The notes beneath the pieces are model-generated. The model was not told the DNA's origin. It saw nothing but the letters and a program-made list of their open reading frames with translations, and made no database searches. The position numbers and the translations under genes are program-made. A stretch of DNA of 64,000 bases from Schmidtea polychroa (taxonomy: Eukaryota), in assembly GCA_044892525.1 (NCBI GenBank), contig CM097885.1, positions 35,962,001-36,026,000 of the forward strand, read 5' to 3'. Below, in pieces: positions 1,249 to 42,846 of this stretch. Every line of letters starts with the position of its first letter. Position 1 is the stretch's first letter.

Positions 1249-1469
1249 CTCGAATTATGATTAAAATGAAATGGTACAAGGTTTTTATACCTATGACTAT
1301 TGTTTTTCATCCAATCAGATTGCAGCATGTCTTTGTTTTAATTGCATTCAAATTGCATTGATATTGTATTGGCACATGTTTTACATTATTAAAATTATTA
1401 TTATTAATAATATTATTTCTATTACTATTTACTAAAAAAGACAAAACAAAAAATAGTTAAACATAAAGA

Positions 1470-1871: not shown

Positions 1872-2109
1872 GGTTTAAAAATGATAACTAAACCCAAAAC
1901 ATTTTGTTATAAATAATCATCATTTAATAAGATTTCGACCAATCAGAATCATGCATTTCAATTGCACTGAATTTGCAATGATAAATAATTAATTAAGTGA
2001 TAATAAAAATCTCAAAATTCTTTTCCTTCAATTATTGATTTAATTTCAGATATGATATTATCAACTATACATTTGTAATCAATATTTTTTATTCCAAGAA
2101 TTACTATCT

Positions 2110-2504: not shown

Positions 2505-2858
2505 TTCAGATATTATTAGTATGTATAATGATAGCCAAACTGGCGGTGAATTACCATATTTCGTTGGTAAACAGTACGGATCAGGTTGGTTAAAAACAAT
2601 AAGGAGATTTGCATTACTTATTCTTAAACGTATTGGTAGTTTTGGCATGAAAACTGCTAAAAACGTGATTATGAATGAACAGAAAATATTACCATCTCTA
2701 AAAACAAATGCTTTGGCTGAGTTAGGGAAGGTTCTACCTGGAGTTGCTGGTATGTTTCAAAAGATACGCTTTCAGCCCCAGCTCCAAAACGTAAAGGACA
2801 TGGAAAATCGCGTATAAATAAACGAATGAAAGGACATGGAACTATATTTGCTAAATGG
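2497..2858 (+). pseudogene. Core protein (QxGG/QYGSG family), frameshifted near the C-terminus
   Basis: Homologous to 36700-37071. Confidence 0.85.
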
Positions 2859-3171
2859 TTTGTGGTAAATCCGAATTATGTATATTTGATAGACCATCGC
2901 CTCAAGCGGTAATCGAATTTGGGGCCTTTGAGGAAGTTTTTCCTATGAATTCACTTACTGATAGTAGAAATGATATCGAGTTTATATTAATGGTTCGCAA
3001 ACTGAATATTTAGATTTGAACGATACTTTATTGACTGTTCAGATCAAGGTTGTAGATAAAGATAAAAAGGTTTTGGATGCCAATGCTGATGTATTGCCGA
3101 ACAATTTCATGTTTCATACTTTTTTTAAAGATGCAGTGTTGGGATTTAATAATATCAAGATTGAGGGTGAT

Positions 3172-3175
<4 letters not shown>
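2855..3175 (+). pseudogene. Major capsid protein N-terminal fragment
   Basis: MVCGKSELCIFDRPSPQAVIEFGAFEEVFPMNS matches the intact MCP; there is a frameshift and the gene is truncated at the (AAT)n tract. Confidence 0.9.
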
Positions 3176-3625
<450 letters not shown>

Positions 3626-3629
3626 ATAA

Positions 3630-6600
3630 TAATATTAATCAAATAGGTTTTGGTGTCGTAGATGTCACCAGTGATATAAATAATAATCATATTATATTAA
3701 AAATGGACGTTTCGTCTTTAGATTTAAAAATGTCTCTGTGCCAGACATTGTAATAAATAAATTAAATTTCTATGTAAATTAAAATCATGTAAAATTCAAT
3801 TTTGTCTAAAGGTGGAATTTATAAAAGATGATGAGTTACAATCTTTTGTAATCTCGAATTCCGCCCGAGTTTGGAGCGACACATTCATTGACGAAGGTAT
3901 TGCTCGTTTAAATGAAAAAATAATTAAAATTAATGAGAAAGGTAGTAATTGGACTATCAATAAAATCGATTACATAAGCTTTGTTCTGACTCAATTTGCT
4001 GAAATAAGTCGGTTAAGTGTCAAAAGATTTATTGAAACCCCAAAATCTTTAAGAAAATTAAGCTGTCTCATTAATGTAGTTAATAATGCCCACTTCTGCT
4101 TTTTTGTATAGTTTCTTGTCAATTATTAAATATGACAGTATAAATAGGCAATATAGAAATCGTCCTAATTCCTACAATCTTTCTGATATTAAATTTGATA
4201 CTAATGATATGCCGATGAAACTATCAAATATAGGTAAATTTGAACAACAAAATCCAGGTTATAGTATTAATGTTCTTACTTACAACAAAAAGGCTTTGAT
4301 AGACATTTCTGATGAAGATGCAGTTATGAAGTATCCCTTTATTGATATAATATACAGGAGTAAGATAGTAGGAGCCATATTGTAACACCTTATTATTATA
4401 AAAATTATCAAAAGAAAATGATAATTACAGATGAACAACAATTAATGTTTGAAAACAGCACATCATGTTATTTGTGCAATGAGCCTTTAGTTAGTCCAGT
4501 TAGGGACCATGATCATTTTACCGGTCTATATCTTGGTGCCGCTTGTACAACTTGTAATCTGTCGAGGCAAATTAGACATACCCTTCCTGTTGTATTTCGT
4601 AATTTAAAGGGTTATGATCTGCATCATATCTTGAAATTTGGCCTTTCAAAATATCATTCATGGAATATTAGCTGTATTCCTTTAACCAGCGAGAAATTCT
4701 TTAGTCTTTTTGCTAGGATTGACTCATTAACTGTTAAATTTATAGACTCTTATCAATTTGTTAGCGAGTCTTTAAATAATGCTGTCAAAACTTTATCATC
4801 TTTACCCTTGACCGAATCAGAATTTCAGGGTACAATAATAACTGCAAAGGGAATTTTTCCTTATGATGCCGCAACTTCATTAGAGGTTTTACATAACACT
4901 CGTCAGTTACCTCCTATTTGTAAAGATGTGACTCCCGCTGAATATGAGACAGCTCAGAGAATTTGGCTAGCGAGTCTTTAAATAATGCTGTCAAAACTTT
5001 ATCATCTTTTCCCTTGACCGAAACAGAATTTCAGGGTACAATAATAACTTCAAAGGGAATTGAAATTTCATTGATTACTTCACTTTTTGATTACATGATG
5101 GTTTATTTAAAACTTGATGTTTTCCTTTTAGCCGATTTTTTTCCAGCAATTTAGAGCTAAGTCCATTGCTCATAACCGACTAGAGCCATTAAATTTCTTA
5201 GGGATTCCAGGTATGTCTTGGAATTCCGCCTTATTAACTTTAAACTCTCCAATTGAGCTCCTCACCGATATTGAGATGTATAACTTTTTCGAGGGCGGTA
5301 TCCGTGGCGGACTAACTTTTGTAAAAAAACACTATGTAAAAACAGACCCGGATACCGCTTTGCTTTACATAAATATAAATAATTTATACGGTTGGGCTTT
5401 AAGTCAACCATTACCTTGCAGTAAGTTTGATTGGGTTACAGATGATAATTTATTAAACAATATAATTGTTGAGTGCACAGCGGTAGATTTAGATCTGCTT
5501 GATTATGGTTATATCATAGAAGTGGATTTAGAAATACCAACGTCAATTCACGACAAACTGGACGATCTTCCCGTTGCCGCTGAAAAGATGTGTGTACCGG
5601 GTTCGAAAATAGAGAAGCTGTTGCTTACACACAGCCCCAAGAGGAACTACGTTCTTCATTGGAGGCTTCTACAAATATTTATTAAATTAGGTGTTAAAAT
5701 ATCAAAAACACATAGAGCAATTAAATTTAAACAAGATAAAATTTTCAAAAATTATATTAACACAAATACGGCGTTACGAGCAGCGTCGACAAATAAACTC
5801 GATAAAACTTTTTATAAATTATTAAACAACAGTCTTTGACTGTTGAAAATCTTAAAAAACGTATTAATTTACGTCTGTGTAATTCTTCACAGAAATTATT
5901 AACATTCTGTTCGAAACCGACTTTTCGTAAATCCACGAAAATCGATGATGACTTGATTTCGGTTTTATTGAGGAAGGATTGTATCTGTTTGAATAAACCT
6001 AGTTACATTGGTCAAACTGTACTAGATTTATCCAAACTCAGGATGTACCAGCTGCAGTATGAAGAGTTGCAAAAATCTCGCGACGAATTCAACTGCAAAA
6101 TTAATATCGTTGCTTGGAACACAGATTCCTTCTTCATGGAAATTAAACATTGTAGTCTTGACATTCTTTTACCTGTGATGATTAGAGATCAATTATTAGA
6201 TACTTCGAATTATGACCCAAATCATCCTTTATATAGTAGGAACCTTGATTCTGTCATTGGTAAATTCAAAGACAAGAATAAAGGGTTATTATATAAAGAT
6301 TGGGTGTTCTTGAGACCTAAATTTTACAGTTTGATGGGTGATGAGGAAAGTATGAAGGCTAAGGGGATTAGTATGAAAGATACTGGACTAACACATCAGT
6401 CGTATCTAGATTGTTATTTAAACGATAAAATATTCACAGTCCCTCAGTTTTGAATAACATAGAAAAATCACCAACTTTTTAGTATTAAAAATAATAAAAG
6501 AGCCTTGACATATAGAGATGATAAGCGAAATTGGGTGGATAAAAATCAAAGTTTGGCATATGGCCATTATTGGGGCGGTGACACAGATATATTTATAGAT

Positions 6601-6901: not shown

Positions 6902-11291
<4,390 letters not shown>

Positions 11292-25369: not shown

Positions 25370-26408
25370 AGTAGATGGATTGGGCACCGCTGGCACAGGG
25401 CACCGCTAGCACAGTACCCCCCCCCCCGTCGGTAAGATTTTCAAAAATATTCTAAGTCTAAAAGTACATTTTTTTTTCAAGGTCAAATTTAAACAAAGAC
25501 ATATGACTCATCAAGGTCATTGAAACAAAGACCATGAGTCATCCTATGACTCATAAAATTTTTCAAGGTCATTTAAACAAAGACCATGACTCATCCGATG
25601 ACCCATCAAGGTCATTTTCAAGGTCATATGACTCATAATATGACTCATCAAGGTCAAAAAAAATTTCTCAAGGTCATTTAAACAAAGACCATGACTCATC
25701 AAGGTCATTTTCAAGGTCGTATGACTCATAGTATGACTCATTTGACCTTGAAAATTTTTTTTCAAGGTCATATGACTCATCCTATGACTCACCAAGGCCA
25801 TTGAAACAAAGACCATGACTCATAGTATGACTCATTTGACCTTGAAAAATTTTTTTCAAGGTCATATGACTCATCCTATGACTCATCAAGGTCATTGAAA
25901 CAAAGACCATGACTCATAGTATGACTCATTTGACCTTGAAAAATTTTTTTCAAAGTCATATGACTCATCCTATGACTCATCAAGGTCATTTTCAAGGTCA
26001 TATGACTCATAGTATGACTCATTCGACCTTGAAAAATTTTTCCCAAGGTCATATGACTCATCCTATGACTCATCAAGGTCATTCTCAAGGTCATATGACT
26101 CATCCGATGACTCATCAAAATTTTCAAGGTCATTTTCAAGGTCATCTGAGTCATCCTATGACTCATCAAGGTCATTTTCAAGGTCACGTGACTCATCCAA
26201 GGTCATTCCCAAGGTCATATGAGTCATCGCGATGACTCATCAAGGTCATATTATTATTTTTAAAAATATTATTATTTTTATTATTATTATTTTTAAAAAT
26301 ATTATTATTTTTAATTTTTTCAAAGTTCCCGCCAACGAAAATTAATAATCGATAGCTCATTTTAAAGCTCAATCCAAGACCTTTCGAATGAGCTATATAT
26401 CTTGTTAC

Positions 26409-26505
<97 letters not shown>

Positions 26506-26667
26506 CTATATACTCCGAGTCTATATACTCCTAGTCTATCCGACAAAATATTTTGTCCCCCTATGGGTAATGCTCACAAGGGTACTGGTCACGCTCAACA
26601 AATCAACAAAACATACATTTATTTAAACAATAAAATAATGTAAAATTAACAAAGGTAAACTAAATAT
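25370..26667 (+). repeat. Left TIR (~1.3 kb) with an internal TGACTCAT/TCAAGGTCA array and (ATT)n
   Basis: Reverse complement of 43926-45106 apart from repeat-unit copy number and a few substitutions. Confidence 0.95.
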
Positions 26668-27294
26668 ATATAGTATGATATTCATTAATCAGTGTTGAAC
26701 AGGCTTGACACTTGCGAACATTCTTCTCATGACACTTAGAACAAACAATTACGTGACCACACGGTAAATACAAAACCGAAACTCGATTTTCTTTACAAAT
26801 TGAACAAGTTAAATATCTTTTCTTAACATCTTTCAATTTTTTCGTTAGCTTATTTTCAATCAAATCGGCTTTCGCTATCCATTCATAAATCAATCTACTA
26901 TATCCCTGTTTCAACCTTAAAAACATACAACTCCAAAAGTATTCATTCAGTGAATCGTTGTTTACTGCTATTTTTTCTAAGTACATTAAATAACAAGATA
27001 ACTTTAAAATGGATTTCTCATAATTAAATAAATCAAACAAATATTCAATAGAGGAATGTTTGAAAATTTTTAAAATATTTATGAGTTGCTTATCACTGTA
27101 AGTATCATGATTATTTATAAAATCTTCAAGTGTATTGTTAAAAAATGTCAATGAAATTTCAGAATAGGCTGGACTTAATTTTTCCTTATTTCTAGTAGGA
27201 CTTCCTTGCTATAAATGACATATAAAAAAAATTGGCAAAATAATAAAGTTACCAAATGTGTTACACATTCATCGGTTTTATTTGTATAAATCAT
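26660..27294 (-). CDS. IAP/MDM2-type C3HC4 RING finger protein, putative E3 ligase; exons 27294-27253 and 27208-26660; ~196 aa
   Basis: CSICKENRVSVLYLPCGHVIVCSKC...KCQAC; a 44-nt GT-AG intron joins an upstream ATG exon in frame; CCAAT and TATA lie upstream. Confidence 0.85.
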
Positions 27295-27461
27295 TATTAA
27301 TAACTAAATTACTTTTGTTTTTACATTTATAAAAATTGTGATAACCAATCAAAATAGAGCTTTCAAAATGTAACCATCAAATGTATAACAATAATAAGCA
27401 TGACTAGTACCCTTTGCAACCTGTTTAAAGTTTTATTATTATTATTATTATTATTATTAAT

Positions 27462-27581
<120 letters not shown>

Positions 27582-27607
27582 ATTATTATTATTAATATTA
27601 TTTCATT

Positions 27608-27830
27608 GATATAGCTGCAGACTATATATAAAAATATAGCTGCATGCCCACTGCAGACTATATATAAAAATATAGCTGCATGCCCACTGCAGACTATATA
27701 TAAAAAATATAGCTGCATGCCCACTGCAGACTATATATAAAAAAAATATAGCTACATGCCCACTGCAGACTATATATAAAAAACATATAGCTGCATGCTC
27801 ACTGCAGACTATATATAAAAAACATATAAA
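27608..27830. repeat. ~33-bp tandem repeat (atagctgcatgcccactgcagactatatataaaaa)
   Basis: About 6 units, one of them partial; the core is shared with the 32.4-33.1 kb array. Confidence 0.9.
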
Positions 27831-28053
27831 AGTCACCATTAAATACTTATAAAATAAACTTAAAAATTATAATAAAACAAACTTAAAAATTCGAAAAATA
27901 TCTGATTACAAAATTTTATTGAATATATACAAATTTTAAATCAATATATTAATACAAGTTTTTATACATTTTTTTTTATAAATCAAAATAAAAAGTTTTT
28001 TTCAATATATACAAGTTTTTTGATCAAAAGTTTCTGTACAATTCTGAGTTGCC

Positions 28054-31000
28054 CTATTGATCTTCGTCCCATTCGCTGTCGTCAAAACTGGGACTTGGAG
28101 CTGCACTGAATTCCTCATCATATTCGCTTAATTCGTCAACTCCTAAATAATGCCCAAATGCGTAACTTAAGTTTTTTCCTAGCCACGCGCGCTTATCATC
28201 ATTATTACTTAGGGCAATTTTCGAATTTTTAAAAGTAAAAAGTTGGTGATTTCTAGTACCTATTCTAGTCTGCGGTACAGAAATCACCTGATTTGAATGA
28301 AAGCAATTTAGATATGATTCGTGATTTATTGATGTCCCTGGTAATTTAACCCCTTTCGCTTTTACCGTTTCCTTACTACCTAAAAGACTATAACATTTAG
28401 GGCGTAAGAAAACCCATTCAGAATACCCTAATCCCTTGCTCTCATCTTTAAACTTCCCGATGACCGAGTCAAGGTTCCTACTATACAAGGGGTGGGTTGG
28501 ATCGTAATTTGACGTATCCAATAAATTATCAGAGATCATCTGAGGTAATAAAGTTGTTAATTTTAAATTTTTTATTTCCAAAAAGAAACTGTCGGTATCA
28601 CCGGCAATAATATTTATGATACATTTATATTGGCGTCTGTACTTCTCCAAATCAATATATTGGAGCTGGTACATCCGCAGTTTAGACAGATCTAGTACTG
28701 TTTGACCAATGTAGCTAGGTCTGTCTAAACAAATCACATCTTTTTCCAAATGTGCCGCAATCAGATCTTGATCGATTCTTATGGACTTTCTGAAAGTCGG
28801 CTTTGAGGAGTATACTATCATCTTTTCGGATGAATTACACAACCTCAAATTCATTCTTTTTTTCAAATTTTCAACCGATTTACCGTAAAGAGAGTTATTA
28901 TACAATTTAAACAAGTCCCTATATATCTCGCTAGTAGACTGAGATCGTAAAGTGGTGTTGGTGTCTATGTAGGATTTAAAGATAGGTCCTTGTTTAAACT
29001 TTATACACCTATGAATATTTACAACAACCGCACCTAATTCTATATACAATTTGAGAAGCCTCCAATGAAGAACATAGTTCCTCTTTGGCCAATGCGTAAG
29101 CATAAGCTTCTCAACTTTTGAATTAGGCGGGCACAACTTTTCCGGCGCAAGCGGAAAATCATTCAAAAAGTCATGCACACATTCCGGAATATCGATATCG
29201 ACCTCCATAGTATACCCATATGGAAGGTTATCAATATCCGTGTTCATACATTCAAGTAAAACATCATTCAAGTTATTATTCACCCAAGAAAAATCACCAT
29301 ACGGAAGATTTTGGCTAAGAGCCCAACCATACAGATTATTTATATCAATGTACAATAATTCTGTATCATCTGAAGTAGCCGTGTAATGTTTGTTAACAAA
29401 TGTTAACCCACCCCGGATACCTCCCTCATAGAAATTATACATTTCCATGTCCTGCAGAAGTTCTATTGGTTCCGTTAATGTCATAAGCGCTGAGGCCCAT
29501 GACATACCGGGAATCCCGTAGAAATTAAGAGGATCCAGACCATTGTAAGCAATTGCCTTACCGCGGAATTGCTGAAAATAATCTGCGAGGAGGTATACGT
29601 CCAATTTTAGGTAGATTAACATATAATCTAACAAATTATTACAGTTATGCTGACTCCAAATTAGTTGAGCCTCAGCGTACTGATCTTCCGTAACATCAGA
29701 CCAAATAGGAGGTAATTCTAAAGTCGATTCAAGAACATCTAAAGAAGTAGCGAAATTATATGGAAAGATACCTTTAGAGTGAATCATCGACCCTTGAAAG
29801 ACAGACGAAGTCAAAGGAAAAGTAGTTAAGGTTTTCACAGCTTTTGCTAAAGAACAATTAACAAATTGCATGCTGTCAATAAAACGAACAGGCAATTTGT
29901 TAATATATGCAATTAAAGATATAAATTTTTCTGTAGAGGTAGGTATAATATTAAGTTCCCAAAGGGGAAAATCACTGAGACCATGTTTTAAAATATGGTG
30001 GAGGTCATAGCCTCGTAAATTATGAAAGACAACAGGTAACAATTTATTAATCCTGCGAGAGACATTGCATTTCCTACATGCCGCTCCGACATATCTACCT
30101 GTAAAATGGCAATGATCTCTCACAGGATTAATAATAGATTTTTTACACAAATAACAAATAGTGGAAGATCGAAAGGCACGCTCCTGAGCAAAAGACAAAG
30201 TAGACATACCTTTACGACCTTCAAGATCATAATATGGCAGGACAATTGTGACAGCAATTTCCTCCACTTTCCTCAAAAAATCCAAAATACAATTAGGTCC
30301 AAAAAAATAATAATAAAATTTAGTGTGTGTATAATTATTAATTAATAAAAGACCTGCTGATATGGGTAAATGTATTTGATGATATGTTTCATGTTCTGGT
30401 AAAACCGATTCAAAATCGGCATAAATTACGAAGGGAGGTGTAACTGTTTTTGCGTAATCTGTGAATAATAAATCTTTATTTTTAGGAAGTGTATACAAAG
30501 TTGTGCCAGTCTGATTTTTACAGCATAGAGCAACATGCTGATCGAAAGCATTCTTATATCTAAAGCCATTTAAACAATGTGGGCACCAGTTACACCTTAT
30601 TTGAACATTTACATTTTCATTTTCATGACAATTCATTAATTTGTCCAAGTCTGTCACGGCTGTATAATGATATTTATCTTTATTACTCAAAAGTAATAAA
30701 TAAATTGGTCTACCGTCTATAACCTTGGAGCGATGTACTATATTAAGATGAGGGTGGTGAGCTACATAATCCTCAGAAATATCTAAATCAGAACTGGCTG
30801 GATTATAAGACAGAACGTTTATGCTCAAGTTTAAATCTCTATTTTTTCTTTCAAATTTGGGAATGTTGCATAGCCTCATCGGGCAATCAGTGTCTTCGTC
30901 ATAATTTAATAGAGGTAAAAATTCTATATATTTGGCGGCTCTTTGGTGATTACGACCTATTTCTTCTCTTTTTAAAAGTGCAAGAATGCTATACAAGAAG

Positions 31001-32357
31001 CACTTATGGTCGTTGTTTTTAACGTTAATTATTGCATGTTTTAATTTTAAAGCCGATGGGGTTTTTATATAGCTATGTCCGGATAATCTACTAACGGGTG
31101 CGTATTTCGTTAAAATAAAATCTATTTCTAAAATATTCACTACTCGCCACCCGCTTCCTAAATAGGTGAATTGCTCAATCTTTTCATTTAATTTGCTCAC
31201 CCCCTCGTTTATAAAGTTTGATGTAAAAACTTGAGCATTGTTTGAAAAATAATTATCCCGGATCTCCCCATCTTTTTCAAATTTAATTAAAATTGTGAAT
31301 TGTATTTTTACATTGCCCATCTTTTCTATTTCCTCTATTAATCTATCTTCAATTTTTGATGTTAGGGCTATTTTAACCAGGTTTTCATTTCTTATATTAA
31401 ATTTTAATGTTTTACGTGATCCATTCAAATCGGATTCAACAACTGGTTCAAACAAAGAGCCGCCTATTTGAAATATGTTGAAAGACGTTGAAGCTACACA
31501 TTCATCATTGATGACTATCACTTCTTGTTGTGTAATGGGTGATTGTTGTGTAATGGGTGCTTGTTGTGTAAACGATGTTGAAGCTACACATTCATCTTTG
31601 CTGATGACTATCACTTCAGGTCGCGATAATTTATTAGGAATGCAATTTTTAATTAAACCAGCAGGTCTTTTAATAGAATCTTTTTTAATATTTATAATAT
31701 CTTTTTTAATAATATTTATAGTATCTTTTTTAATAGCATCTTTTTTAATAGAATCTGTTTTTTCTTTTATAATATTTTTTTTAATATTTTTTAAATCTTT
31801 TTTAATATCTATTTTTATATCTTTTTTAATAGTATTTTTTGGTAAATTTTTTTGTAATTTTTTATTTATTTTTTTAAATAAAACATTTTTTGATATCGAA
31901 AATTGCCCTAAGTGACAATGATGTTTATTAAAAAATTCCCTATATTTTACTTTTTCGCTCGTTACACATTTGGGGCATATAAAAAAGTTGAGCGAATTAA
32001 ACGTCTTTTTGTAGTATTTTCTCATTGTGCGATGACATTTATCGCTATGTCCATTTGCAGCTTGGCAATAATTTGGGTATAGTTTACCTGTTAAATAATA
32101 AAATTAAAGTTTTATTTTTTTTTCTAATTGTTATTAATTGTTACATCTATAAGGATTTATCATCATTTGTTATTTAATTCAAATGAACTATATAACAAAT
32201 GATGATAAATCCTTATAGAAAATAGGTTAATATATTCGAGAGAATATTAGAGAGATTTTAGTAGATAGGTCAGATTATTATATGAATATGTTAAATATTA
32301 GAGAGATTTTAGTAGATAGGTCAGATTATTATATGAATATTAGACGAGTCAGATTAA

Positions 32358-32410
<53 letters not shown>

Positions 32411-33118
32411 TGAAGAGAAGTAGCTGCATGCCCACTGCAGACTACTATGTAGCTACATGCTTACTGTAGACTACATTATTATTATTAATATTATTATTAT
32501 TATTATATTGAAGAGAAGTAGCTGCATGCCCACTGCAGACTACTATGTAGCTACATGCTTACTGTAGACTACATTATTATTATTAATATTATTAATATTA
32601 TTATTATTATTATATTGAAGAGAAGTAGCTGCATGCCCACTGCAGACTACTATGTAGCTACATGCTTACTGTAGACTACATTATTATTATTAATATTATT
32701 ATTATTATTATATTGAAGAGAAGTAGCTGCATGCCCACTGCAGACTACTATGTAGCTACATGCTTACTGTAGACTACATTATTATTATTAATATTATTAA
32801 TATTATTATTATTATATTGAAGAGAAGTAGCTGCATGCCCACTGCAGACTACTATGTAGCTACATGCTTACTGTAGACTACATTATTATTATTAATATTA
32901 TTAATATTATTATTATTATTATATTGAAGAGAAGTAGCTGCATGCCCACTGCAGACTACTATGTAGCTACATGCTTACTGTAGACTACATTATTATTATT
33001 AATATTATTAATATTATTATTATTATTATATTGAAGAGAAGTAGCTGCATGCCCACTGCAGACTACTATGTAGCTACATGCTTACTGTAGACTACATTAT
33101 TATTATTAATATTATTAA

Positions 33119-33188
<70 letters not shown>

Positions 33189-34608
33189 TTAACTATTGTA
33201 GATGCACATTGCAAACTACAAGGATTTATTTTATAACTATAATTTTGTAATCACTTTTTTAAATACTTTGATTATATTTCAAAAAACATAGTATTTTCTT
33301 CATAATTTTCGTCATATTTTCATCATAATTTTGGTCATATTTTCATCATAATTTTGGTCATAATTTTGGTCATAAATCATTTTCATTTTGTTCATAAATT
33401 TTCGTCATAATTTGGGCATAAATCATCATAATTTGGGCATAAATCATTTTCTTCATAATTTGGGCATAAATCATCATAATTTGGGCATAAATCATCATAA
33501 TTTGGGCATAAATCATCATAATTTGGGCATAAATCATAAATCATCATAATTTGGGCATAAATCATTTTCTTCATAATTTGGGCATAAATCATCATAATTT
33601 GGGCATAAATCATCATAATTTGAGCATAAATTCATAATTCATTTTCTTCATAAGTTTGATCATAAGGTTCATCAAAATATTTAAGAAATTTTCATCAAAA
33701 ATTAAAGAAATTTTCATCAAAATATTTAAAAAAAAAGTGATTACGAAATTTAAATATCAAAAATATATATAAAATAAATAAATCTTACATTCTGATTCCA
33801 TATCGGAATCTGAGTCTTCAGCAACCGAACTGAGGGTATTATCATCAATTGTTACATTTTCCATAAAATCTTCATCGATGGAATCCGAGTCTTCAGCAAC
33901 CGAACTGAGGGCATTATCATCAATTGTTACATTTTCCATAATTTCTTCTTCATCGATGTCGACATTGAAATTAAACGCTAAAAAATAAAATTTTTAAAAA
34001 TAAATTACTAAAGTAAATAAATTTACTTTTTTCTTTGATAACCTTGGTTTGCCCAACATCAATAACTGGGGCATCCGATTGTCCAAGAAAAATAATATCT
34101 TCATCACTATTTTCATTAACATTTTCTGTAATGCAAATTAATTTAATAAAAATTAAAATAAATTTACTTTTTTCTTTGAAAACATAGTTGTGCCCAACAT
34201 CATTAACTGGGGCATCCGATTGTCCAAGAAAAATAATATCTTCATCACTATTTTCATTAACATTTTCTGTAATGCAAATTAATTTAATAAAAATTAAAAT
34301 AAATTTACTTTTTTCTTTGAAAACATAGTTGTGCCCAACATCATTAACTGGGGCATCCGATTGTCCAAGAAAAATAATATCTTCATCACTATTTTCATTA
34401 ACATTTTCTGTAATGCAAATTAATTTAATAAAAATTAAAATATTAAATTTACCAAATATATTTTCCACATTTAAAATGGCATCGTTTTCTGTAACTTCGT
34501 ACCAGTCGAATGGTTCTAAAATAAAATATAATAAAAATCGAATAAAAATAATAATAATTTACCGTTAGTCAAAAGACTTCTCAATACTCGATTCTTGTTG
34601 GTTTCCAT
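28054..34608 (-). CDS. Protein-primed DNA polymerase B polyprotein. Main exon 32087-28054; predicted upstream exons 34608-34563, 34515-34453, 34407-34309, 34266-34168, 34125-34027 and 33977-33789; ~1540 aa
   Basis: Exonuclease motifs YADFES and FHNLRGYD; polymerase motifs DINNLYG, KLYNNSLYGK and GDTDS; OTU-like NDHKCF..HY; endonuclease VII-like CYLC..VRDHCH..CRKCN. All six predicted introns are GT-AG and phase 1. The main ORF is secure; the leader exons are predicted. Confidence 0.9.
32405..33190. repeat. Seven ~100-bp tandem units with a constant GC-richer core and variable ATT spacers
   Basis: tattgaagagaagtagctgcatgcccactgcagactactatgtagctacatgcttactgtagactac repeated 7 times. Confidence 0.95.
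33295..33655. repeat. 21-bp tandem repeat (tcatcataatttgggcataaa)
   Basis: Seen directly in the sequence. Confidence 0.9.
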
Positions 34609-34949
34609 TGATTTCAAATAGATTTTCGAATTGATTTTCAAAATTTCAAAATAATTGTGACAAATTTTAGATTTGTCAATGTTTATAAAGAGAATGAATA
34701 TTTTCCTGTCCCAGCCAATGAGAATATAGACACACACACATATACATTGAATATTTTACTCTCTCAACCAATCACACGCATGCATGTATGTAATGTAAAT
34801 CAGTCAGAATTACATGTGACTGCCTTTGTTAGTCATGCCTTTGTTAACTTGCACTGTGCATGCCTCAGGCAAAGGCAGTCTTTATGTTACAAATAATAAT
34901 ATTTATTAGAATAATAATAAAATTAATTAAAAATAATAATATTTTTCAC

Positions 34950-34992
<43 letters not shown>

Positions 34993-35069
34993 TTAATAAT
35001 ATTAATAATAACACAACAACAAAGGAAAGGATACATTTATTAAACATCAAATTTATTAAACATTTTTCT

Positions 35070-35482
35070 TTAAACATCAAATTTTTTGTACAATAACCAA
35101 GCTAAACAATGTTGACCGCATGTTTGGGTCAAAGGATTTTGAAACATAGTTTTATTATACACAATAGGTTTTCCCATTGTTTGTAGTTTTGATATCAACA
35201 AAGCTGGGTAATAGAAACCCATCGGATCGAACACGAATATATTACCAGGTTTCACATATATAGCTATCCAATGTTCTCCACCAAGATGAGACGATTGAGT
35301 ATTGACGATTATTGCTTGATTATTGCTCAAATATGGAATTTTATCAAGAGGAAAAACTCCAACAAATTCATTTCCCAATATCTGTTTTCCGATTTTATTG
35401 ACCTGAACAGAACTATTTAAATAAATCCAGAGTATAAAAAAACAACTTACTCCATGATAACTTTTTGTGTTTCTGTATACAT
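35070..35482 (-). CDS. Adenain-like cysteine protease; 38-nt intron at 35413-35450
   Basis: GVFPLD, IVNT......GEHWIA, FDPMG and Q......CGQHC. The spliced N-terminus reads (MYTETQKVI)MDSVQVNKIGKQILG. Confidence 0.92.
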
Positions 35483-36703
35483 TTATACCAACACGGTTCT
35501 ATTTGCAGTAATTTGAACTTCATTTTCAAATACTCCATATATTATAACATGTACTGGTTCAGTAATAGCTTTGGCAAACTTTATATCCAGTCGTAAATTC
35601 CCGTTTTGTGGTAATTGACTTTGATTTAAATCAAAATCAGGGGCTAAAACAAATGTAAAAAATGGGTATTTGCTTTTAAAATCTTCTAGTGTTATTCCGC
35701 AATTCAAATTTTTATCTAAATAACCCAGATTTCTAACAATACTCTGCATATATGTCGCACAGTAATTGTCATTCTCGAAATCTTGAATATATGTTTCTCT
35801 ATAATCAGTATTTTTCGACAAAGTCAATGATGTAACACCAAAGTTTTTGAAAATTGAGCTGGACGCAGTATATGATCCATTATATTGTGCTTCACTTTGA
35901 AATGTTATCAGAATAAAATTAGGCATTCTTCTGTCACCAAATATTTGTTCTTTATAGAATGATGAAGCACCTTTAGCAATAGCAAATTGTACAATTTCCT
36001 TTGTTTTTAAGGGATAAATTGCATGTTTTGAATTAAGACCCAATTGATGACCAGCTAATACAGAGGGGTCTACTCGAACTCTTCTCACCAATAATTTTGC
36101 ATCAACTAATTGACATATTGGTGCAGTAGTTGCACTAGTAAGAGATAATGCAGAATCAGACCTTTTCAATCTAATATGTACATTAACTCCCGGTAGTAAA
36201 TATTTCGGTTGATCCATAAAATCAAGTTGTAATGATGAGCACATGGTGAAAACCTTTGAGCCTTTTACCCACTTTTTTCTTTCATCATCACTGCCATAAC
36301 CCATAGGAGTAAGACATGTATTTTTAGTATCGGAATTGTAATTTAAAATAGTTTCTATTAATGCCTTGTGAATGAATGTATTATTTCCGCCCTCAATCTT
36401 GATATTATTAAATCCCAACACTACATCTTTAAAAAGAGTATGAAACAGGAAATTGTTCGGTATTACATCTGCATTGGCATCCAAAACTTTTCTATCTTTA
36501 TCTACAACCTTAATCTGAACAGTCAATAAAGTATCGTTCAAATCTAAATATTCGGTTTGTGAACCGTTAATATAAAACTCGATATCATTTCTACTATCTG
36601 TAATTGAATTCATAGGAAAAACTTCCTCAAATGCCCCAAATTCTATTACAGCCTGGGGCGATGGTCTATCAAATATACATAATTCAGATTTACCACAAAT
36701 CAT
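35483..36703 (-). CDS. Double jelly-roll major capsid protein
   Basis: 406 aa with Polinton MCP motifs KSELCIF..P, IEF.I.G...YLDL..T.L, NNFLFHTLF, Q.KYLLPGV and GNLRLDIKF. Confidence 0.93.
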   Translation of the reverse strand: MICGKSELCIFDRPSPQAVIEFGAFEEVFPMNSITDSRNDIEFYINGSQTEYLDLNDTLLTVQIKVVDKDRKVLDANADVIPNNFLFHTLFKDVVLGFNNIKIEGGNNTFIHKALIETILNYNSDTKNTCLTPMGYGSDDERKKWVKGSKVFTMCSSLQLDFMDQPKYLLPGVNVHIRLKRSDSALSLTSATTAPICQLVDAKLLVRRVRVDPSVLAGHQLGLNSKHAIYPLKTKEIVQFAIAKGASSFYKEQIFGDRRMPNFILITFQSEAQYNGSYTASSSIFKNFGVTSLTLSKNTDYRETYIQDFENDNYCATYMQSIVRNLGYLDKNLNCGITLEDFKSKYPFFTFVLAPDFDLNQSQLPQNGNLRLDIKFAKAITEPVHVIIYGVFENEVQITANRTVLV

Positions 36704-37071
36704 TTTGCAAATATAGTTCCATGTCCTTTCATTCGTTTGTTTATACGTGATATTCCATGTCTTTTACGTTTTGGAGCATGAGCTGGAGCTGGTGCTGGAG
36801 CTGGTTTTTGAAACATACCTGCAACCCCGGGTAAAACTTTCCCTAATTCTGCTAAAGCATTTGTTTTTAGAGATGGTAATATTTTCTGTTCATTCATAAT
36901 AACATCTTTTGCAGTTTTCATACCAAAACTACCGATACGTTTAAGAATAGGCAATGCAAATCTACCTATTGTTCTCAACCATCCTGATCCGTACTGTTTA
37001 CCAATAAAATATGGTAAATCACCACCAGATTGGCTACCACTATACATACTAATAATATCAGAATTTGCCAT
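36700..37071 (-). CDS. Virion core or membrane-active protein with protease cleavage motifs
   Basis: QSGG and QYGSG followed by the amphipathic WLRTIGRFALPILKRIG and a basic C-terminus; typical position between penton and MCP. Confidence 0.8.
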   Translation of the reverse strand: MANSDIISMYSGSQSGGDLPYFIGKQYGSGWLRTIGRFALPILKRIGSFGMKTAKDVIMNEQKILPSLKTNALAELGKVLPGVAGMFQKPAPAPAPAHAPKRKRHGISRINKRMKGHGTIFAK

Positions 37072-38131
37072 CTACTTTACGAAAATGTAATGTCAAATGA
37101 GTTTTTGAACCTTTTGGAAAGTTTATAAGTTTTCCACTATCATCACGAATATTTATTTCTATATTGTTTATACATGAACTTGCTATTGGTAAATACATGG
37201 GATTATCGATATTTATATTGACAACTTCATCATGTTCATATTTGCCAATCCATACCGATTTCAAAAGAGGAACACTGGAATCACCAACAATTATGGGTTC
37301 GATAATGTTAGTATATATGAACATTTGTTGATGATGTTCTAGTATTCTTGGTTTGCGTATACCAGTCGATTTTTCTCGATATTTTTGCTTATCTAATCCA
37401 AGTGAATTTGCCAAATTTTTATCAAATGTAACTTCGCAAATATCATCATTCAAACTGAAGGTAAACATCAAATCTTTCACAATTTCCAAATTTTTAAATA
37501 TGTGTGAACAATTGAACTTTAAATATTTAAGTAAATCATCAAGTTTATCAAAATATAATTCATCAGCAAAGGTAAATGATTCTTCAACTTTATCATTATA
37601 CGACACAGATATTTTGATTTCTTCTTTCATTACACTGTTTGCTTCAAATAGATTAAAACGTAATAAATACTCGGTCTCCGTAACAATATTTTTCAACTTA
37701 TTGCAACCCATTCGTTTGGCATCTTCAATAGTTTCGAATGTTATTGTAAATGGTTTAAAATCACAACTGATATTTAATCCATCCTTGTAAAACATATAGC
37801 AATGCGAATCTAATATTTGATTCGGAATATGATATGTTTTATCATAATTACTGATAACAAAGATACCGCTACATGTTTTCACAATATTCCTTTTGAAATC
37901 AATCTTACATTGACTATAAAATGGGAATGTGTTGTACACGAATGTAAAATCTTGCAGTGCAACTTCCCAATCCCCATTTAAAGAAATCGGATTCTGAAGA
38001 TTGACCATGAATTTACTGGCTTGATTGTCTGGATGAATTAATGGACAACTATTGCTCGGCAAAATAGTATAAAAATTCACTTTACTAGGTCTTTTGCTGA
38101 TATCCATGACGGGTTTTGATAACCATGCCAT
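37058..38131 (-). CDS. Minor capsid protein (penton)
   Basis: FY.ILPSNS....PDN..S.F.V.L..PI.L.G.WEVAL at the N-terminus and IVGD..VPLL...IEINIRD..G..I.F....LTLHFR at the C-terminus. Confidence 0.92.
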   Translation of the reverse strand: MAWLSKPVMDISKRPSKVNFYTILPSNSCPLIHPDNQASKFMVNLQNPISLNGDWEVALQDFTFVYNTFPFYSQCKIDFKRNIVKTCSGIFVISNYDKTYHIPNQILDSHCYMFYKDGLNISCDFKPFTITFETIEDAKRMGCNKLKNIVTETEYLLRFNLFEANSVMKEEIKISVSYNDKVEESFTFADELYFDKLDDLLKYLKFNCSHIFKNLEIVKDLMFTFSLNDDICEVTFDKNLANSLGLDKQKYREKSTGIRKPRILEHHQQMFIYTNIIEPIIVGDSSVPLLKSVWIGKYEHDEVVNINIDNPMYLPIASSCINNIEINIRDDSGKLINFPKGSKTHLTLHFRKVDGKF

Positions 38132-38706
38132 TTGACATAGTATTGTTTATCCTTACCGACCTTTTTAGTTTTCAATATTTTTTGAATTCTAAATACTTTT
38201 GGGGGAGGAATGACTTGTAATTCCTGCTCATAAAATTTCCCCTGTACAATATTATTATCATTGTCTTTGATGACATACATTACAGGATGCTGTTTAGTAT
38301 TTATTTTTGAAATTACAAAGACTTCATCACTCCAATTTGTATCAAAATTTTTAATAAATGGTGATGCACTAATTTTACTAATTCTAACATGGTCACCGAC
38401 TTTATATTTAGGTTTTGCAATTTTTACAGATTTTTTAGATAATGATGTTTTTGATGTAATATCAACCGGTCTCAATCCATTCAGTCCTCGATGTGATGAA
38501 TGATTATAACTTGTTATTATTTTCGGTAAAGCATTTACCCATTTTTTATTACCTTGATGCACGAACAATTTCTTTAATCGATCTCTCAATGTTCGATTAA
38601 ATCTTTCAACATGGGCAGCTTTGTATTGAGAATGTACCGAGTAGTGATTTATTTTCAGTTTATCGAGGATTTGCTTAACTTTGCTATTGTAGAATTCTTT
38701 ACCTAA

Positions 38707-38783
<77 letters not shown>

Positions 38784-39171
38784 CTAAATCTGTTTGCAAA
38801 TTATTAGGATGTCCATCTTTAAATAAAATATTAATTGCCTTGGACATTTCTTCTGCAGATTTTGCCTTGACTGGTATTGCTCGTGCAAACCTGCTGTATA
38901 CATTAATACATGTTAAAATATATTTATTCCCATTGTTAATTTTCGAATATGGTATCATCTCCATCAAATCCATTTGCCATAAATCGTCAATACCAAATGT
39001 TTTATACGCTCTTGTTGGAAATCTTTTCCGCATTGGTTTGTTCAAACTGTACGCAAGCTGATCTGATAACCACTTCTGGGTTTCTTTTTTCGAATTCGGA
39101 ACTCTTTTGTTTAATTTTGCCACTCCACCGAAACCGGCTTCGTCTTCTGGGTTCGTCCAAATCTTCTCCAT
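38077..39171 (-). CDS. Retroviral-like DDE integrase with C-terminal chromodomain; 81-nt intron at 38703-38783
   Basis: WQMDL, QTDLG|KEF, VERFNRTL, YKVGDHVRIS and the chromodomain YYVKWHGY..PSWI. Confidence 0.95.
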
Positions 39172-39229
39172 TACAACAAGAAGATTTAAAATTAAATTTA
39201 ATGTCGGGCAATGAAGGATTAGCACCCAT
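39002..39229 (-). CDS. Overprinted small ORF with N-myristoylation consensus and a CC motif
   Basis: MGANPS (G2, S6), FKSSCC and basic RRRSR; its ATG sits 3 nt after the stop of the upstream gene. Confidence 0.55.
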   Translation of the reverse strand: MGANPSLPDIKFNFKSSCCNGEDLDEPRRRSRFRWSGKIKQKSSEFEKRNPEVVIRSACVQFEQTNAEKISNKSV

Positions 39230-39232
39230 TGT

Positions 39233-39766
39233 TTATGATTGATTTCCTACAACTCCACCTAATAATGATAATGCCAGAGGTATCAAGGCACCAATAAATC
39301 CACCTTGTTGTTTATATATAATTTTCCTCATTTGCTTACGATTTTTATTATTTACTAAAGATAATAAAGGTTTCCTATGTTTGCTCAATAAATGCTTTTT
39401 TGATTTACTGATTTTAATTTTGCCTTTGACTACTTTAAGTATAATATTGAGTAAATCATCGACAACAAAATTTGGGAATGATTGCAATATATTCATTCTT
39501 TTCATACTCGGAGCCTTTAACAATGCATTAAAAAATGGAAAACTGCGATGATTTTTAACTACTTTTTTACCGGTTTTACGGGTTTTACGGGTTTTACGTT
39601 TAGGTTTAGGATTTTTCGAAATAAGATTCATTGCAGAGAAATTTTCAGTTACAAGTTTTTTAGATGGTGTATAACTAGTTGTTGGTGGAACTTTTGGAAC
39701 TTTAATAGTCTTTCTAATACCTTTTCTTAATTTCCTAATATTTTTCACCCTTGCTTTTAGAAACAT
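39233..39766 (-). CDS. Highly basic core protein with C-terminal QQGG and hydrophobic peptide
   Basis: K/R-rich; ends KQQGGFIGALIPLALSLLGGVVG, typical of Polinton core or membrane-lytic precursors. Confidence 0.8.
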   Translation of the reverse strand: MFLKARVKNIRKLRKGIRKTIKVPKVPPTTSYTPSKKLVTENFSAMNLISKNPKPKRKTRKTRKTGKKVVKNHRSFPFFNALLKAPSMKRMNILQSFPNFVVDDLLNIILKVVKGKIKISKSKKHLLSKHRKPLLSLVNNKNRKQMRKIIYKQQGGFIGALIPLALSLLGGVVGNQS

Positions 39767-39784
39767 TATTATTCATAGAGGTTT

Positions 39785-40411
39785 TCAACTTTGTTTATAA
39801 ACCATGGCACCTTTTGGGTTGAAAATATCTGTTTTTACACGTAAATCATCGGGACATTGTTGTGTGAAATCAAGAAATATATATCCATGAGGTATTTTTG
39901 TAGCATCTTGAAATGCACTGATAAGAAAATTACGATTGTTAGGGTATGCTTGACGTGCAAGAAAATCAATCACTGTTGCATCTCTAGGATTCTTGAAAAT
40001 GACTAAATACTGTACATTTAAATTACGTGTTCGATGTGCCCCACCTTGATGAAATAGATTTTGAGTTATGAAAATAACTGTTACACCGACATGTCTGCTG
40101 ATCTTTGTAAATAAATTATTAAAATCTTTTTCTTTATTAGCTTCTTGATACAAATCATCGATAATAATGACATCACCTTTCTTTAATCGGCTGGACCAGT
40201 TTTTATCGAATCCCTTTACTATTTTCATGTTTTTTAATTTACAGAAACTTGATTGAGTTAATCCATGTTCTTCATCAGCACCCCTATGCCAATAAATCCT
40301 GTTGAATTTTGATTTGAATAAATTTGATTTTAGTAATTTACAAACAAATAATGTTTTTCCACTACCACTCGGACCAACGATTTGGTATACTGCATCATTT
40401 CTTAATTCCAT
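39785..40411 (-). CDS. A32/FtsK-like DNA packaging ATPase
   Basis: Walker A GPSGSGKT, Walker B IIIDD, SRH, FITQNLF, LVIFKNPRD and HGYIFLD. Confidence 0.96.
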   Translation of the reverse strand: MELRNDAVYQIVGPSGSGKTLFVCKLLKSNLFKSKFNRIYWHRGADEEHGLTQSSFCKLKNMKIVKGFDKNWSSRLKKGDVIIIDDLYQEANKEKDFNNLFTKISRHVGVTVIFITQNLFHQGGAHRTRNLNVQYLVIFKNPRDATVIDFLARQAYPNNRNFLISAFQDATKIPHGYIFLDFTQQCPDDLRVKTDIFNPKGAMVYKQS

Positions 40412-40510
40412 TTCAAAAATTTTATATATGTATATTTGTTTATATTCGATGATTTAATGAACTCATGCTCAATTTGTATATAAAGACTAATTTTCATAAA
40501 TGATTTAATA

Positions 40511-40948
40511 ATGTTAGCAAATATAAATTATCGAGGAAATTTTGATGTATCGAATATGAGGTTCCCACCTGGGAAACCCCAGCAAATTATCGATAGAAGC
40601 GGGAAATATCCGATAATATTTTTCAAGACTGGTAAATGTCGAATCATGGGATGTAAGAAACCTTTGGATATTAATAAATTACAATATCGAATAAATAATA
40701 TTAAAATCCAATCAATTACCGTTACTATGGATATGGGACATAGTATCAATCTATATAACATGTCGAAAAAATGTGATTGTATGTTTGAACCAGAATTGTT
40801 TCCGGCACTAAGACTAATAAAATATAACCCTATATGTGTCAATGTGTTTGCTAGTGGAAAGGTTGTCATGTTGGGGTTGAGAAATTTGGAGTATAGAGAA
40901 TTTGTTGACAATGTTCGAAATGAGATAATTTCATTGGTCGATTTTTAA
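40511..40948 (+). CDS. TATA-binding-protein-like protein (divergent, 145 aa)
   Basis: IKIQSI...INL...FEPELFPAL...VNVFASGKVVMLG aligns to TBP repeat 2 (YEPELFPGL...IFVSGKVVLTG); IIFFKTGKCRIMG aligns to repeat 1. Confidence 0.85.
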   Translation: MLANINYRGNFDVSNMRFPPGKPQQIIDRSGKYPIIFFKTGKCRIMGCKKPLDINKLQYRINNIKIQSITVTMDMGHSINLYNMSKKCDCMFEPELFPALRLIKYNPICVNVFASGKVVMLGLRNLEYREFVDNVRNEIISLVDF

Positions 40949-41019
40949 TTGGTTAATTTCTAATTGGTTATTGATTGATTTAAACAAACGGTTTTTTGTT
41001 TAGAATTCATTTTTTCACT

Positions 41020-41437
41020 ATGTACAAAATACCAAGCTCTGCAACCCTCATGAAGGATATTGACGATTCCGGTAAATTTAAAATTTTTATTTTCACATTA
41101 TTTACTATTTATTATTTTAGAAAAATATATCAAAGTTATGATCAACAGGATAAAATATTATTATCCGCAAATCAATGAAATTATCAAGGATAGAGAAGCA
41201 GAAATAATTCCAGACCTCATTTTCTACACAACACAAATTAGAATAATGGAGGTATTTCACCAGTTCTTGTGGGATCTTAAGATAAACAGAAGCATCAAAC
41301 AAATGGAGCCAGAGTACCAGTGCATCATCGGATGCTCATGCTGTGCCGATCGATATCGGCGATATGTCGAATGGGAGTTAGTGAAAACTCTGCGAAGGTT
41401 TCACTACTCCCGGATTGTAGATCTTGGATATGAATAA
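41020..41437 (+). CDS. Unknown accessory protein with a CxxGCSCC motif; 49-nt intron at 41072-41120
   Basis: Splicing joins two short ORFs in frame; a homologue exists at 1470-1871; AATAAA overlaps the stop. Confidence 0.75.
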
Positions 41438-41855
41438 ATGTATTTTTGTATCTGTTGTGTTTTTTATATTTGAAATAGTAATAAATAATAGTAATAATAA
41501 TAATATTAATAATAATAATAGTAATAATAGAAATAATAATAGTAATAATAGAAATATGAATAGTAATAATAATAGAAATAATAGTAAAAAAAAACATTAA
41601 TAATAATAATGAAACACCTTATTAATAAATCTGTAAATAGAACATATAACAAAACATGTAATAATTAAAACATTAATAATAAAACACATAAATAATAAAT
41701 CTGTAAATAGAACATATAACAAAACATGTGACAATGCAACATCAATGCATTTTGAATGCAATTTTAAACAAAGACATGCTGTAATCTGATTGGTTGATAG
41801 ACATGAGTCAAAGGTATAAAAACCCTGTAACATTTCAATTTATTCATTATTCACG

Positions 41856-42266
41856 ATGACCAAGAAAATTTCAAGCACCGAAAAACCAAAAGAAATGGTA
41901 CAACCAGTTCAAATGTTCCACAACTACAAAATGTATTTTTTGAAAGAAGAAATCAATATGAAATTGGTTGCACCAGTCAAGCTAATTCCAACTAAATTCG
42001 AATTCTTATCCGGCACGCTTTCAATGATTGATGTCAAAACTATTGATGATGTTTTTAAACGGATAGATTCGAATCTATCGTGTAATCAACATGCATGGTT
42101 CAACAATAGATATGCAAGATTTTATGATGCTTTTGATGAAATCAGTTTCAAAGAAAATGAAAATTGGTATATAACAATAGCAATCCAGGGATATAAAGTT
42201 GATAATAATGATGTATATTCTCCTATTTGGAAAATTATGTCTGCTAGACTTTCACAAATATTTTAA
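41856..42266 (+). CDS. Unknown accessory protein (possible OB-fold ssDNA-binding protein)
   Basis: Conserved between the two elements; CCAAT/AP-1/TATA promoter upstream; beta-rich C-terminal pattern. The function is speculative. Confidence 0.75.
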   Translation: MTKKISSTEKPKEMVQPVQMFHNYKMYFLKEEINMKLVAPVKLIPTKFEFLSGTLSMIDVKTIDDVFKRIDSNLSCNQHAWFNNRYARFYDAFDEISFKENENWYITIAIQGYKVDNNDVYSPIWKIMSARLSQIF

Positions 42267-42392
42267 TGTTATATTTAATAAATGTATTAGTCAGATTTGT
42301 TTTTCTCTTTATTAATTGCAACATAAATGCAAATGACATGCAAATTTAACAAAGAAAATCTATAAACAAAATTATAATATAGTTTTAAAGTG

Positions 42393-42778
42393 ATGAAAAT
42401 GACTGCAGAAAAAGGTTAACATGATTAATTAATTACCGAATTATTTATTATTTAGAATTTTTAATCAACTTTTTGTTGGAAAAGTTAGCAGAAATATCTG
42501 GTGTGAAAATGGAGGATATATTATCTATTACAAATGCCTTAAATATCGGCTGGTTAGTTGAGAGTCAAGATACAGGATTTGATGATGAGGAAGAAACTCA
42601 AGAAATTGATGAGGAAGAAACACAAGAGGAAATGTATGAACCTATAGAGGAACCTATAGAGGAACCTATAGAGGAACCTAAAGATGAATCTAAAGATAAT
42701 ATTACGAATGATTGTATTGATCATGTCGTTGAAAATATAATGAAATGTGGAGATGACGACTGCGAATGTGTTAATTAA
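42393..42778 (+). CDS. Acidic small protein with Cys-rich C-terminus; 41-nt intron at 42415-42455
   Basis: The intron is conserved with the copy at 352-709; EEPI repeats; C-terminal CIDH...KCGDDDCECVN. Confidence 0.75.
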
Positions 42779-42846
42779 TAAATCTTAGTGTTTGTAAATT
42801 TATTTAAAATTTTATTTAAAAATCAAACAAAATAACTATATAAATT

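Follow-up and report, generated by a model that had tools for sequence, protein, structure and literature searches.

The polymerase (pPolB) of Maverick/Polinton elements is known for the architecture TP-vOTU-EXO-PALM, in which a terminal protein (TP) and an OTU-like protease precede the exonuclease and the polymerase, as laid out for eupolintoviruses and 'Alpha adintovirus' in the available text of two studies (10.1101/2024.03.18.585575; PMC8502044). Intact Mavericks are usually annotated and filtered as sets of intronless open frames, and no introns were seen in the intact vertebrate elements (PMC8097293, available part); in nematodes the core genes were reported as intronless, with introns in cargo genes only (10.1101/2022.07.12.499685, available part). 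Dinoflagellate polinton-like viruses carry introners, according to the available part of a further report (PMC12166617). Here, we analysed 64,000 nucleotides of Schmidtea polychroa DNA (GCA_044892525.1, contig CM097885.1, positions 35,962,001 to 36,026,000 of the forward strand; hereafter the window), an AT-rich, eukaryotic stretch that contains a complete Maverick with six short exons (E1–E6) upstream of its pPolB gene. We estimate at roughly 55% the probability that these exons form the 5′ end of an intron-bearing pPolB gene, with E1–E6 feeding the exon that starts at 32087, and that leader and pPolB are joined in at least some transcripts. A spliced pPolB leader is not described in the available parts of PMC8502044, 10.1101/2023.08.22.554363, PMC6431247, 10.1101/2024.01.15.575659, PMC12721341 and PMC12220804, and no literature report of one was found, a result on which subscription papers, Repbase entries and supplements may bear.

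The element shared with described polintons a pPolB with a little-finger/PAD-type TP, an OTU domain with catalytic Cys and His, an exonuclease and a polymerase, as well as terminal inverted repeats (TIRs), a 6-bp target-site duplication, an integrase, an ATPase and a protease. In contrast to the described pPolB proteins, its TP was preceded by a Cys/His module and an acidic leader of several exons, and unlike described Mavericks the element had spliceosomal-type introns in core genes (pPolB, integrase and protease). The intronless core, a trait that has been reported for Mavericks and is not part of their definition, did not hold here, since a pPolB Cys codon is split and a phase-1 intron interrupts the integrase within D-L-G-K-E-F. 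Spliceosomal introns inside an integrated polinton-type genome are shared with the introner-bearing dinoflagellate elements; those, however, have repeated mobile introners, whereas here short AT-rich phase-1 introns cluster at gene starts and are accompanied by exon duplication. In adenovirus, a small exon that lies upstream, beyond an intron, supplies N-terminal residues of the E2B polymerase and preterminal protein; the TP is encoded separately and this exon adds few residues. Here, in contrast, up to 198 residues from six exons would precede a fused TP-OTU-polymerase. Phase-symmetric exons, low-complexity acidic sequence and tandem duplication have been described for cellular genes, and the gene that carries them here is the replicase of a virus-like element; a single shared phase allows exons to be duplicated without loss of frame, as discussed for disordered modules of human genes in the available part of PMC3632108.

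Anatomy of the leader exons

The six exons lie on the minus strand. E1 (34608–34563, 46 nt) carries the ATG and ends in phase 1; it is followed by intron 1 (34562–34516, 47 nt, GT-AG) and by E2 (34515–34453, 63 nt, phase 1-1), which is rich in acidic and aromatic residues. E3 (34407–34309), E4 (34266–34168) and E5 (34125–34027) are 99-nt copies of one another in phase 1-1, E4 having the same letters as E3 and E5 carrying 6 changed nt in five codons at its 3′ end. E6 (33977–33789, 189 nt, phase 1-1) contains an internal 75-nt repeat and is the sole leader exon that ends in T. This bears out what a sequence-only reading of the same DNA had proposed, namely phase-1 exons at 33.7–34.7 kb, three of them 99-nt copies with a 141-bp period and one a 189-nt exon with an internal duplication. 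Leader introns 1–5 measured 47, 45, 42, 42 and 49 nt, all GT-AG and all in phase 1; five leader donors read GTAAAT and one GTAAGA, with TAG or CAG at the acceptors. The G+C fraction was 0.08–0.12 in the introns vs. 0.30–0.37 in the exons, with a sharp step at every boundary.

The 141-bp tandem array comprised 3.0 copies with a 97% match and its unit is one intron plus one exon, so that E3–E5 evidently arose by tandem duplication of this unit. Because E3 equals E4 and E5 differs at only 6 nt, the duplication is recent. Together, E1–E6 amount to 595 nt, or 198 codons plus 1 nt, and their 193 whole codons include 50 Asp/Glu and 10 Lys/Arg. Introns 2–4 are free of stops and multiples of three in length, and their retention would therefore keep the frame as well.

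Splicing of the leader

The leader was present in six sequencing runs, none of them recorded as RNA, of which two (X1 and X2) are RNA by guess. Contigs of 4 of the 12 listed runs were compared with 33645–34885, X1 cover being absent over 33645–33770 and X7 contributing no contig; uncovered parts were not counted as evidence. One X1 contig (depth 3.56) joined 34563 to E2, skipping 52 nt with five substituted letters between; the 47-nt intron 1 had therefore been excised exactly, in a related copy. The same joint had a depth of 0 in the DNA-like run X3 (3899 records). Four X1 contigs passed from 34027 into E6-like letters instead of intron 5, with 7 of 9 residues matching the start of E6 and a length two codons shorter. 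By their GT-AG ends and by these joints, which show introns 1 and 5 removed from related copies in what is probably RNA, the leader introns are of the U2 spliceosomal type.

These joints bear on the possibility that the leader exons only seem to be exons, read by chance into non-coding DNA that is AT-rich and full of repeats. AT-rich DNA often contains short GT-AG gaps, and a search for spliced chains, which found three exons on the real DNA (introns 2–4 fell outside its T-count filter), also yielded three-exon chains in 6 of 300 local shuffles. No homologue of the leader was found outside Schmidtea polychroa by protein, pattern and ESM Atlas searches: the exons showed no similarity to 80 related loci, nor among themselves beyond E3–E5, E6 had no usable match in ESM Atlas, a 35-nt exon pattern had no match in viral_contigs, and none of 46 candidates scored when E6 was searched against longer proteins for a spliced product. 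Against this stand the X1 contigs from which introns 1 and 5 have been removed exactly, the G+C step at every boundary and a diverged E2 copy that keeps its peptide by silent changes (6 of 9 residues). The six small exons are real; the contig joints have already largely refuted the chance reading, to which we give scarcely any credence.

Equal phases had suggested in the sequence-only reading that exons could be skipped. The arithmetic held for E2–E5. Skipping of E6 would not be neutral, because no other leader exon supplies the final T from which the Cys codon of pPolB described below is completed, and the Cys would be lost. No exon-skipping joint was seen among the contigs, where 13 of 98 X1 records fitted two places and near-identical copies were not told apart.

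Upstream of E1, a promoter-like region (34681–34773, minus strand) has ATTGG boxes 164 and 111 nt, and a TATAAAC 79 nt, before the ATG. ATTGG or CCAAT also occurs at most 120 nt from four other ATG starts of the Maverick, and by these boxes the region is a candidate promoter. Over 34635–34885, summed contig depth in X1 and X3 was several-fold above that of the exons, with loose ends at 34635–34641; the promoter-like stretch seems to be common to other families that continue differently beyond it. One X2 contig (minus strand, 34885–34613) ran to 34613 and then into an 18-nt A run, which is either the poly(A) tail of a transcript from further upstream, with its end 5 nt short of the E1 ATG, or an A run in the genomic DNA of a related copy.

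The pPolB acceptor and the Cys/His module

The pPolB frame (28054–32103, minus strand) has 1349 codons, and the sequence-only reading was right to place within it an in-frame acceptor, a CAG at 32088, from which the main exon runs (32087–28054, minus strand) with 1344 open codons and the exonuclease and polymerase motifs. The exon starts with a Cys/His module (32087–31891, minus strand) of the spacing C-x5-7-C-x3-5-H-x3-6-C followed by C-x2-C-x14-17-H-x2-H (CCHC, then CCHH), the first Cys codon of which straddles the acceptor. When the 80 residues that follow the acceptor were used as a query, 28 relatives were found. Sixteen relatives were picked for their N-terminal module (11 of the 28 plus five loci), and all 16 had a Cys just before the position of the window's first residue, 1–10 residues after Met. 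The unspliced frame of the window has Thr-Gly at this position and no Met. Because the Cys codon split at the acceptor needs an upstream phase-1 exon ending in T, pPolB is evidently spliced, and this comparison indicates that the acceptor at 32088 is used.

The proposal that pPolB is unspliced and starts at its first in-frame ATG, at 32025, draws on four relatives (P0001, P0004, P0020 and P0036) that begin near this point without the first half of the module. However, the 20 codons between the acceptor and this ATG keep the module residues Cys7, His12 and Cys17, which would not be conserved if untranslated. Similarity also ends exactly at a canonical acceptor. An unspliced start is very improbable.

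The module occurs singly or in tandem at the pPolB N-terminus of this clade (P0012–P0039) and, judging by its spacing, probably binds metal. For one relative it was predicted to fold with a mean pLDDT of 87. It matched no Pfam family and no solved relative by sequence; a fold search gave a best Z of 2.3 in 48,161 chains, BFVD no E below 0.79 and ESM Atlas no usable match (best 0.77), and a search against longer proteins for a spliced product gave none among 28 candidates. The absence of matches does not make the module a new fold.

Choice of the upstream exon

The proposed intron 6 (33788–32088, minus strand, 1701 nt) has canonical ends and is in phase. Tandem arrays make up 1347 of the 1701 nt, with 11–28-nt TATGA units, AAT runs, and 107-bp and 51-bp units. 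The 107-bp array (32368–33136) shares a 24-nt motif with a 39-bp array downstream of pPolB (27433–27826). A seventh exon within the TATGA arrays, whose longest open stretch is 79 codons, was rejected, as 8 of 21 unit lengths were not multiples of three.

Among the six leader exons only E6 completes the Cys codon, the others giving Gly or Ser. Its donor is the strongest-looking and is followed by T-rich, intron-like DNA. Of the 74 AG dinucleotides after this donor, the most T-rich is the one at 32088, behind which 1344 codons are open; one other (an AAG nine codons past 32088) keeps the long frame, and all remaining ones close within 43 codons. Reading through the donor leads to a stop after 10 hydrophobic codons, and another 526 nt separate this from the first AATAAA. 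The first AATAAA lies −2 to 133 nt from nine genes of the element (RING, pPolB, PRO, MCP, Bcl-2-like and four on the plus strand), overlapping the stop in one of them. A spelling C-K-I-Y in the read-through, like that of relatives' modules, was set aside as a likely product of donor consensus and AT richness.

These features of the E6 donor argue for its joining to 32087 and against two separate genes, the arrangement in which E1–E6 encode an acidic protein of ~209 residues, polyadenylated near the AATAAA at 33230, and pPolB starts only at a 22-nt mini-exon (32166–32145, minus strand). The acidic protein would then perhaps be a transcriptional activator partnering the TBP homologue encoded by the element. 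The mini-exon, which emerged from the spliced-chain search, contains two ATGs and comprises seven codons plus T in phase 1; its intron (32144–32088, 57 nt, GTAACA...CAG) uses the same acceptor. It likewise restores the Cys, and gives an M-x6-C N-terminus like that of the relatives, all 16 of which have Met 1–10 residues before the Cys. Depending on the donor rule, such an arrangement occurred in 0.5–4.7% of 5000 shuffles, a test defined post hoc. A TATATAG lies 28 nt upstream of the mini-exon, and two other genes of the Maverick begin with ATG exons of 22 and 52 nt and short phase-1 introns of 41 and 49 nt. On the other hand, the mini-exon intron is longer than those of the leader and its donor differs from theirs, and no ATTGG box occurs within 200 nt. 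Two separate genes are possible, though we consider them unlikely.

Besides the missing homologues and the fit of the mini-exon to the relatives' N-terminus, several observations weigh against the union of E1–E6 with pPolB. The E6–32087 joint was not observed, the contig comparison having ended at 33645 with the acceptor outside it, and five loose ends at 33758–33785 and 210 further loose-end rows having fallen outside the evaluated set, and intron 6 is ~35 times the length of the other leader introns. Unspliced pieces over introns 1 and 2 also occurred in X1 and X2, which come from a single study. For the PZ, ATPase and TBP genes the first AATAAA follows at 304–484 nt, and for three genes a stretch of 700 nt contains no such signal, so that the poly(A) argument is soft. 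An excess of silent changes speaks for the joined leader, with reservations: of 22 listed copy differences between 33789 and 34515, 18 were exonic, and 8 of these were silent vs. an expected 0.19 (p 0.012); the excess dropped to p 0.085 at an expected 0.27, and the table is neither full nor independent (two of the 18 rows are one site in two exon copies). All five codon differences between E4 and E5 are replacements.

What the sequence-only reading had said of the junction therefore stood in part. The 1701-nt length of the intron, its repeat content and the use of its acceptor were borne out, whereas E6 as the partner was not, as the mini-exon also fits. Its figure of ~219 added amino acids is correct as arithmetic (198 codons, the junction codon and 20 codons to the ATG at 32025), but the fair addition is 198 residues, because both models require the 21 residues that follow the acceptor.

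The swollen intron also raises the possibility that sister copies splice their leader onto pPolB, while in the window copy intron 6 is no longer removed and the leader is a dead end. The splice evidence stems from related copies, whose records have up to 10 other letters and are not provably the window copy, and introns elsewhere in the element, at 38–81 nt, are far from the array-filled intron 6. Yet the core frames are all open and the termini intact, donor and acceptor are canonical, and no strong competing acceptor lies between them. We consider a dead end improbable. Introns in this element do inflate, as seen from the arrays of intron 6 and from the integrase intron (38783–38703, minus strand), which has swollen to 81 nt; the latter is GT-AG, in phase 1, consists mostly of an ATT run and has AG/GT on both sides. 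Its removal yields D-L-G-K-E-F, and the frame is open through the intron as well.

Architecture and relatives of pPolB

In a model of the first 520 residues of pPolB, residues 211–333 counted from 32085 (31455–31087, minus strand) resembled a TP-like domain of the little-finger/PAD fold (4ir1_F; Z 8.2, root-mean-square deviation 2.6, 92 aligned). Residues 346–482 (31050–30640, minus strand) resembled an OTU-like protease (8c83_x; Z 6.9, root-mean-square deviation 3.2, 94 aligned), with Cys362 and His473 invariant. Both Z values are middling, and many OTU rows agree. The exonuclease and Pol A/B/C motifs were invariant in an alignment with 11 relatives. PF03175 was detected on two of the five closest relatives, and Pfam gave no PF03175 match on the pPolB of the window. 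On these models, the protein is of the TP-vOTU type. A Lys-rich linker holds 28 Lys/Arg in 85 residues. In the linker before the TP (31620–31470, minus strand), acidic residues flank two EVIVI stretches, and a tandem EVIE/DI repeat occurs in P0001; these resemble SUMO-interacting motifs, though the pattern was present in 1 of 10 relatives.

Eighty loci related to this pPolB were collected from metagenome contigs, and the eight closest with upstream DNA (39–51% identity) were examined. Four of these (L003–L006) have an unspliced start at the module, and the other four (L001, L002, L010 and L015) carry AT-rich introns of 40–52 nt towards the 5′ end of pPolB, and all 10 introns found were in phase 1, a phase that was not imposed. 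L002 (242–423) contains three 66-nt exons, two of them near-duplicates, and so shows an independent tandem exon duplication; in L015 the module precedes the introns, and the available DNA of L001 and L002 is without the module. P0027–P0029 have 80–370 residues ahead of the module. A pPolB alignment search of viral_contigs found no relative. By these comparisons, short phase-1 introns and exon duplication recur in this polymerase clade, and the leader sequence is private.

The host element and its surroundings

The Maverick spans 25370–45106 (19,737 bp) with termini AGTAG...CTACT, identical 6-mers flanking both ends as a 6-bp target-site duplication, and TIRs of ~1.2–1.3 kb (94% identity over 736–980 nt). 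In a Pfam scan of 15 of its frames, an integrase was recognised by rve (E 1.3e-5, with a score below the gathering threshold) and a chromo domain, a Pox_A32-type ATPase at E 3.5e-7 and an adenain-type protease by Peptidase_C5 at E 3.6e-6. By its termini and target-site duplication, its pPolB, and its integrase, ATPase and protease, the insertion is a Maverick/Polinton. The same scan recognised the TBP homologue (40484–40948, plus strand, E 1.2e-15), a RING finger protein (26660–27208, minus strand, E 1.5e-9) and, weakly, a Bcl-2 match in one frame; frames of 426 and 362 aa at the usual positions had no informative Pfam match, and Rfam gave no match across 25000–45500. Four further genes, the Bcl-2-like and protease genes included, each appear to have one short intron: 41020–41437 (plus strand, 49 nt), 42393–42778 (plus strand, 41 nt), 43361–42847 (minus strand, 44 nt) and 35482–35070 (minus strand, 38 nt).

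The TIRs (25370–26667 and 43926–45106) each contain 20–23 TCAAGGTCA and 25–27 ATGACTCAT motifs, compared to 0 and 1, respectively, in 18.8 kb of flank. We take these motifs to be NR5A/FTZ-F1 and AP-1 binding sites; the arrangement suggests that the Maverick ends are enhancer-like arrays.

Elsewhere in the window, a second, broken Maverick of a related family lies in the opposite orientation at 447–6500, without the leader region; identity to it was 84–90% at the DNA level in two genes and ~71% in pPolB, and an AAT run stands where its capsid gene meets a pPolB fragment. A 4-kb near-perfect palindrome (7167–11196, 98.8%) contains two head-to-head reverse-transcriptase/GIY-YIG-like frames, presumably Penelope-like by eye. 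A host frame at 49047–49430 (minus strand) starts like a signal peptide, contains a KR site and ends with Gly at the C-terminus, and so resembles a neuropeptide precursor of the CRH/egg-laying-hormone type.

Proposed mechanism and significance

For the joined leader and pPolB, we propose that RNA polymerase II would start behind the ATTGG and TATAAAC boxes at 34.7 kb, that the host spliceosome would join E1–E6 and that, in at least part of the transcripts, it would join E6 to 32087 over the repeat-inflated 1.7-kb intron. The six exons probably add an acidic tail to the polymerase, and the predicted product is a 198-residue acidic and probably disordered tail, followed by the Cys/His module, the TP, the OTU domain, the exonuclease and the polymerase. 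The tail would have grown by tandem duplication of the 141-bp intron-plus-exon unit and of a 75-bp stretch, duplications that could be tolerated because all introns are in the same phase and the tail lacks structure. In the published model the OTU protease cleaves behind the TP; tail and module would therefore stay with the genome-linked TP. The likeliest function of the tail, which is a guess, is that of a low-specificity acidic docking or DNA-mimicking arm beside the Lys-rich linker. A second, short isoform may start from the 22-nt exon at 32166, which is compatible with the leader being joined to pPolB.

A more speculative extension, which we regard as quite doubtful, is that alternative first exons yield two pPolB precursor forms, a short ancestral type from the 22-nt exon and one with a long acidic arm, as an exon 'accordion' in which exon duplication and host splicing set the number of SUMO-interacting-motif (SIM)-like or activator-like modules. 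Following the definition of SIMs as hydrophobic four-residue cores with an acidic flank (PMC12751080, available part), SIM-like stretches occurred once per 99-nt exon, four in total where shuffles gave 1.67 (p 0.07, or 0.17 once the repeats were taken out). The putative SIM array did not pass the shuffle test, the folded core was 'enriched' as well, which makes the signal unspecific, and such an array was present in 1 of 10 relatives. If the extension were true, the host spliceosome would tune how a DNA-end-bound protein engages SUMO or the transcription machinery.

A Maverick lineage that depends on the host spliceosome for its polymerase, integrase and protease genes would be tied to nuclear transcription and to host-specific intron size, and intron-bearing Mavericks would be mis-annotated as truncated or dead. 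Exon duplication would give the element a cellular route to protein evolution. The true N-terminus of pPolB matters mechanistically, since it would be part of the terminal protein, which remains attached to the ends of the DNA.

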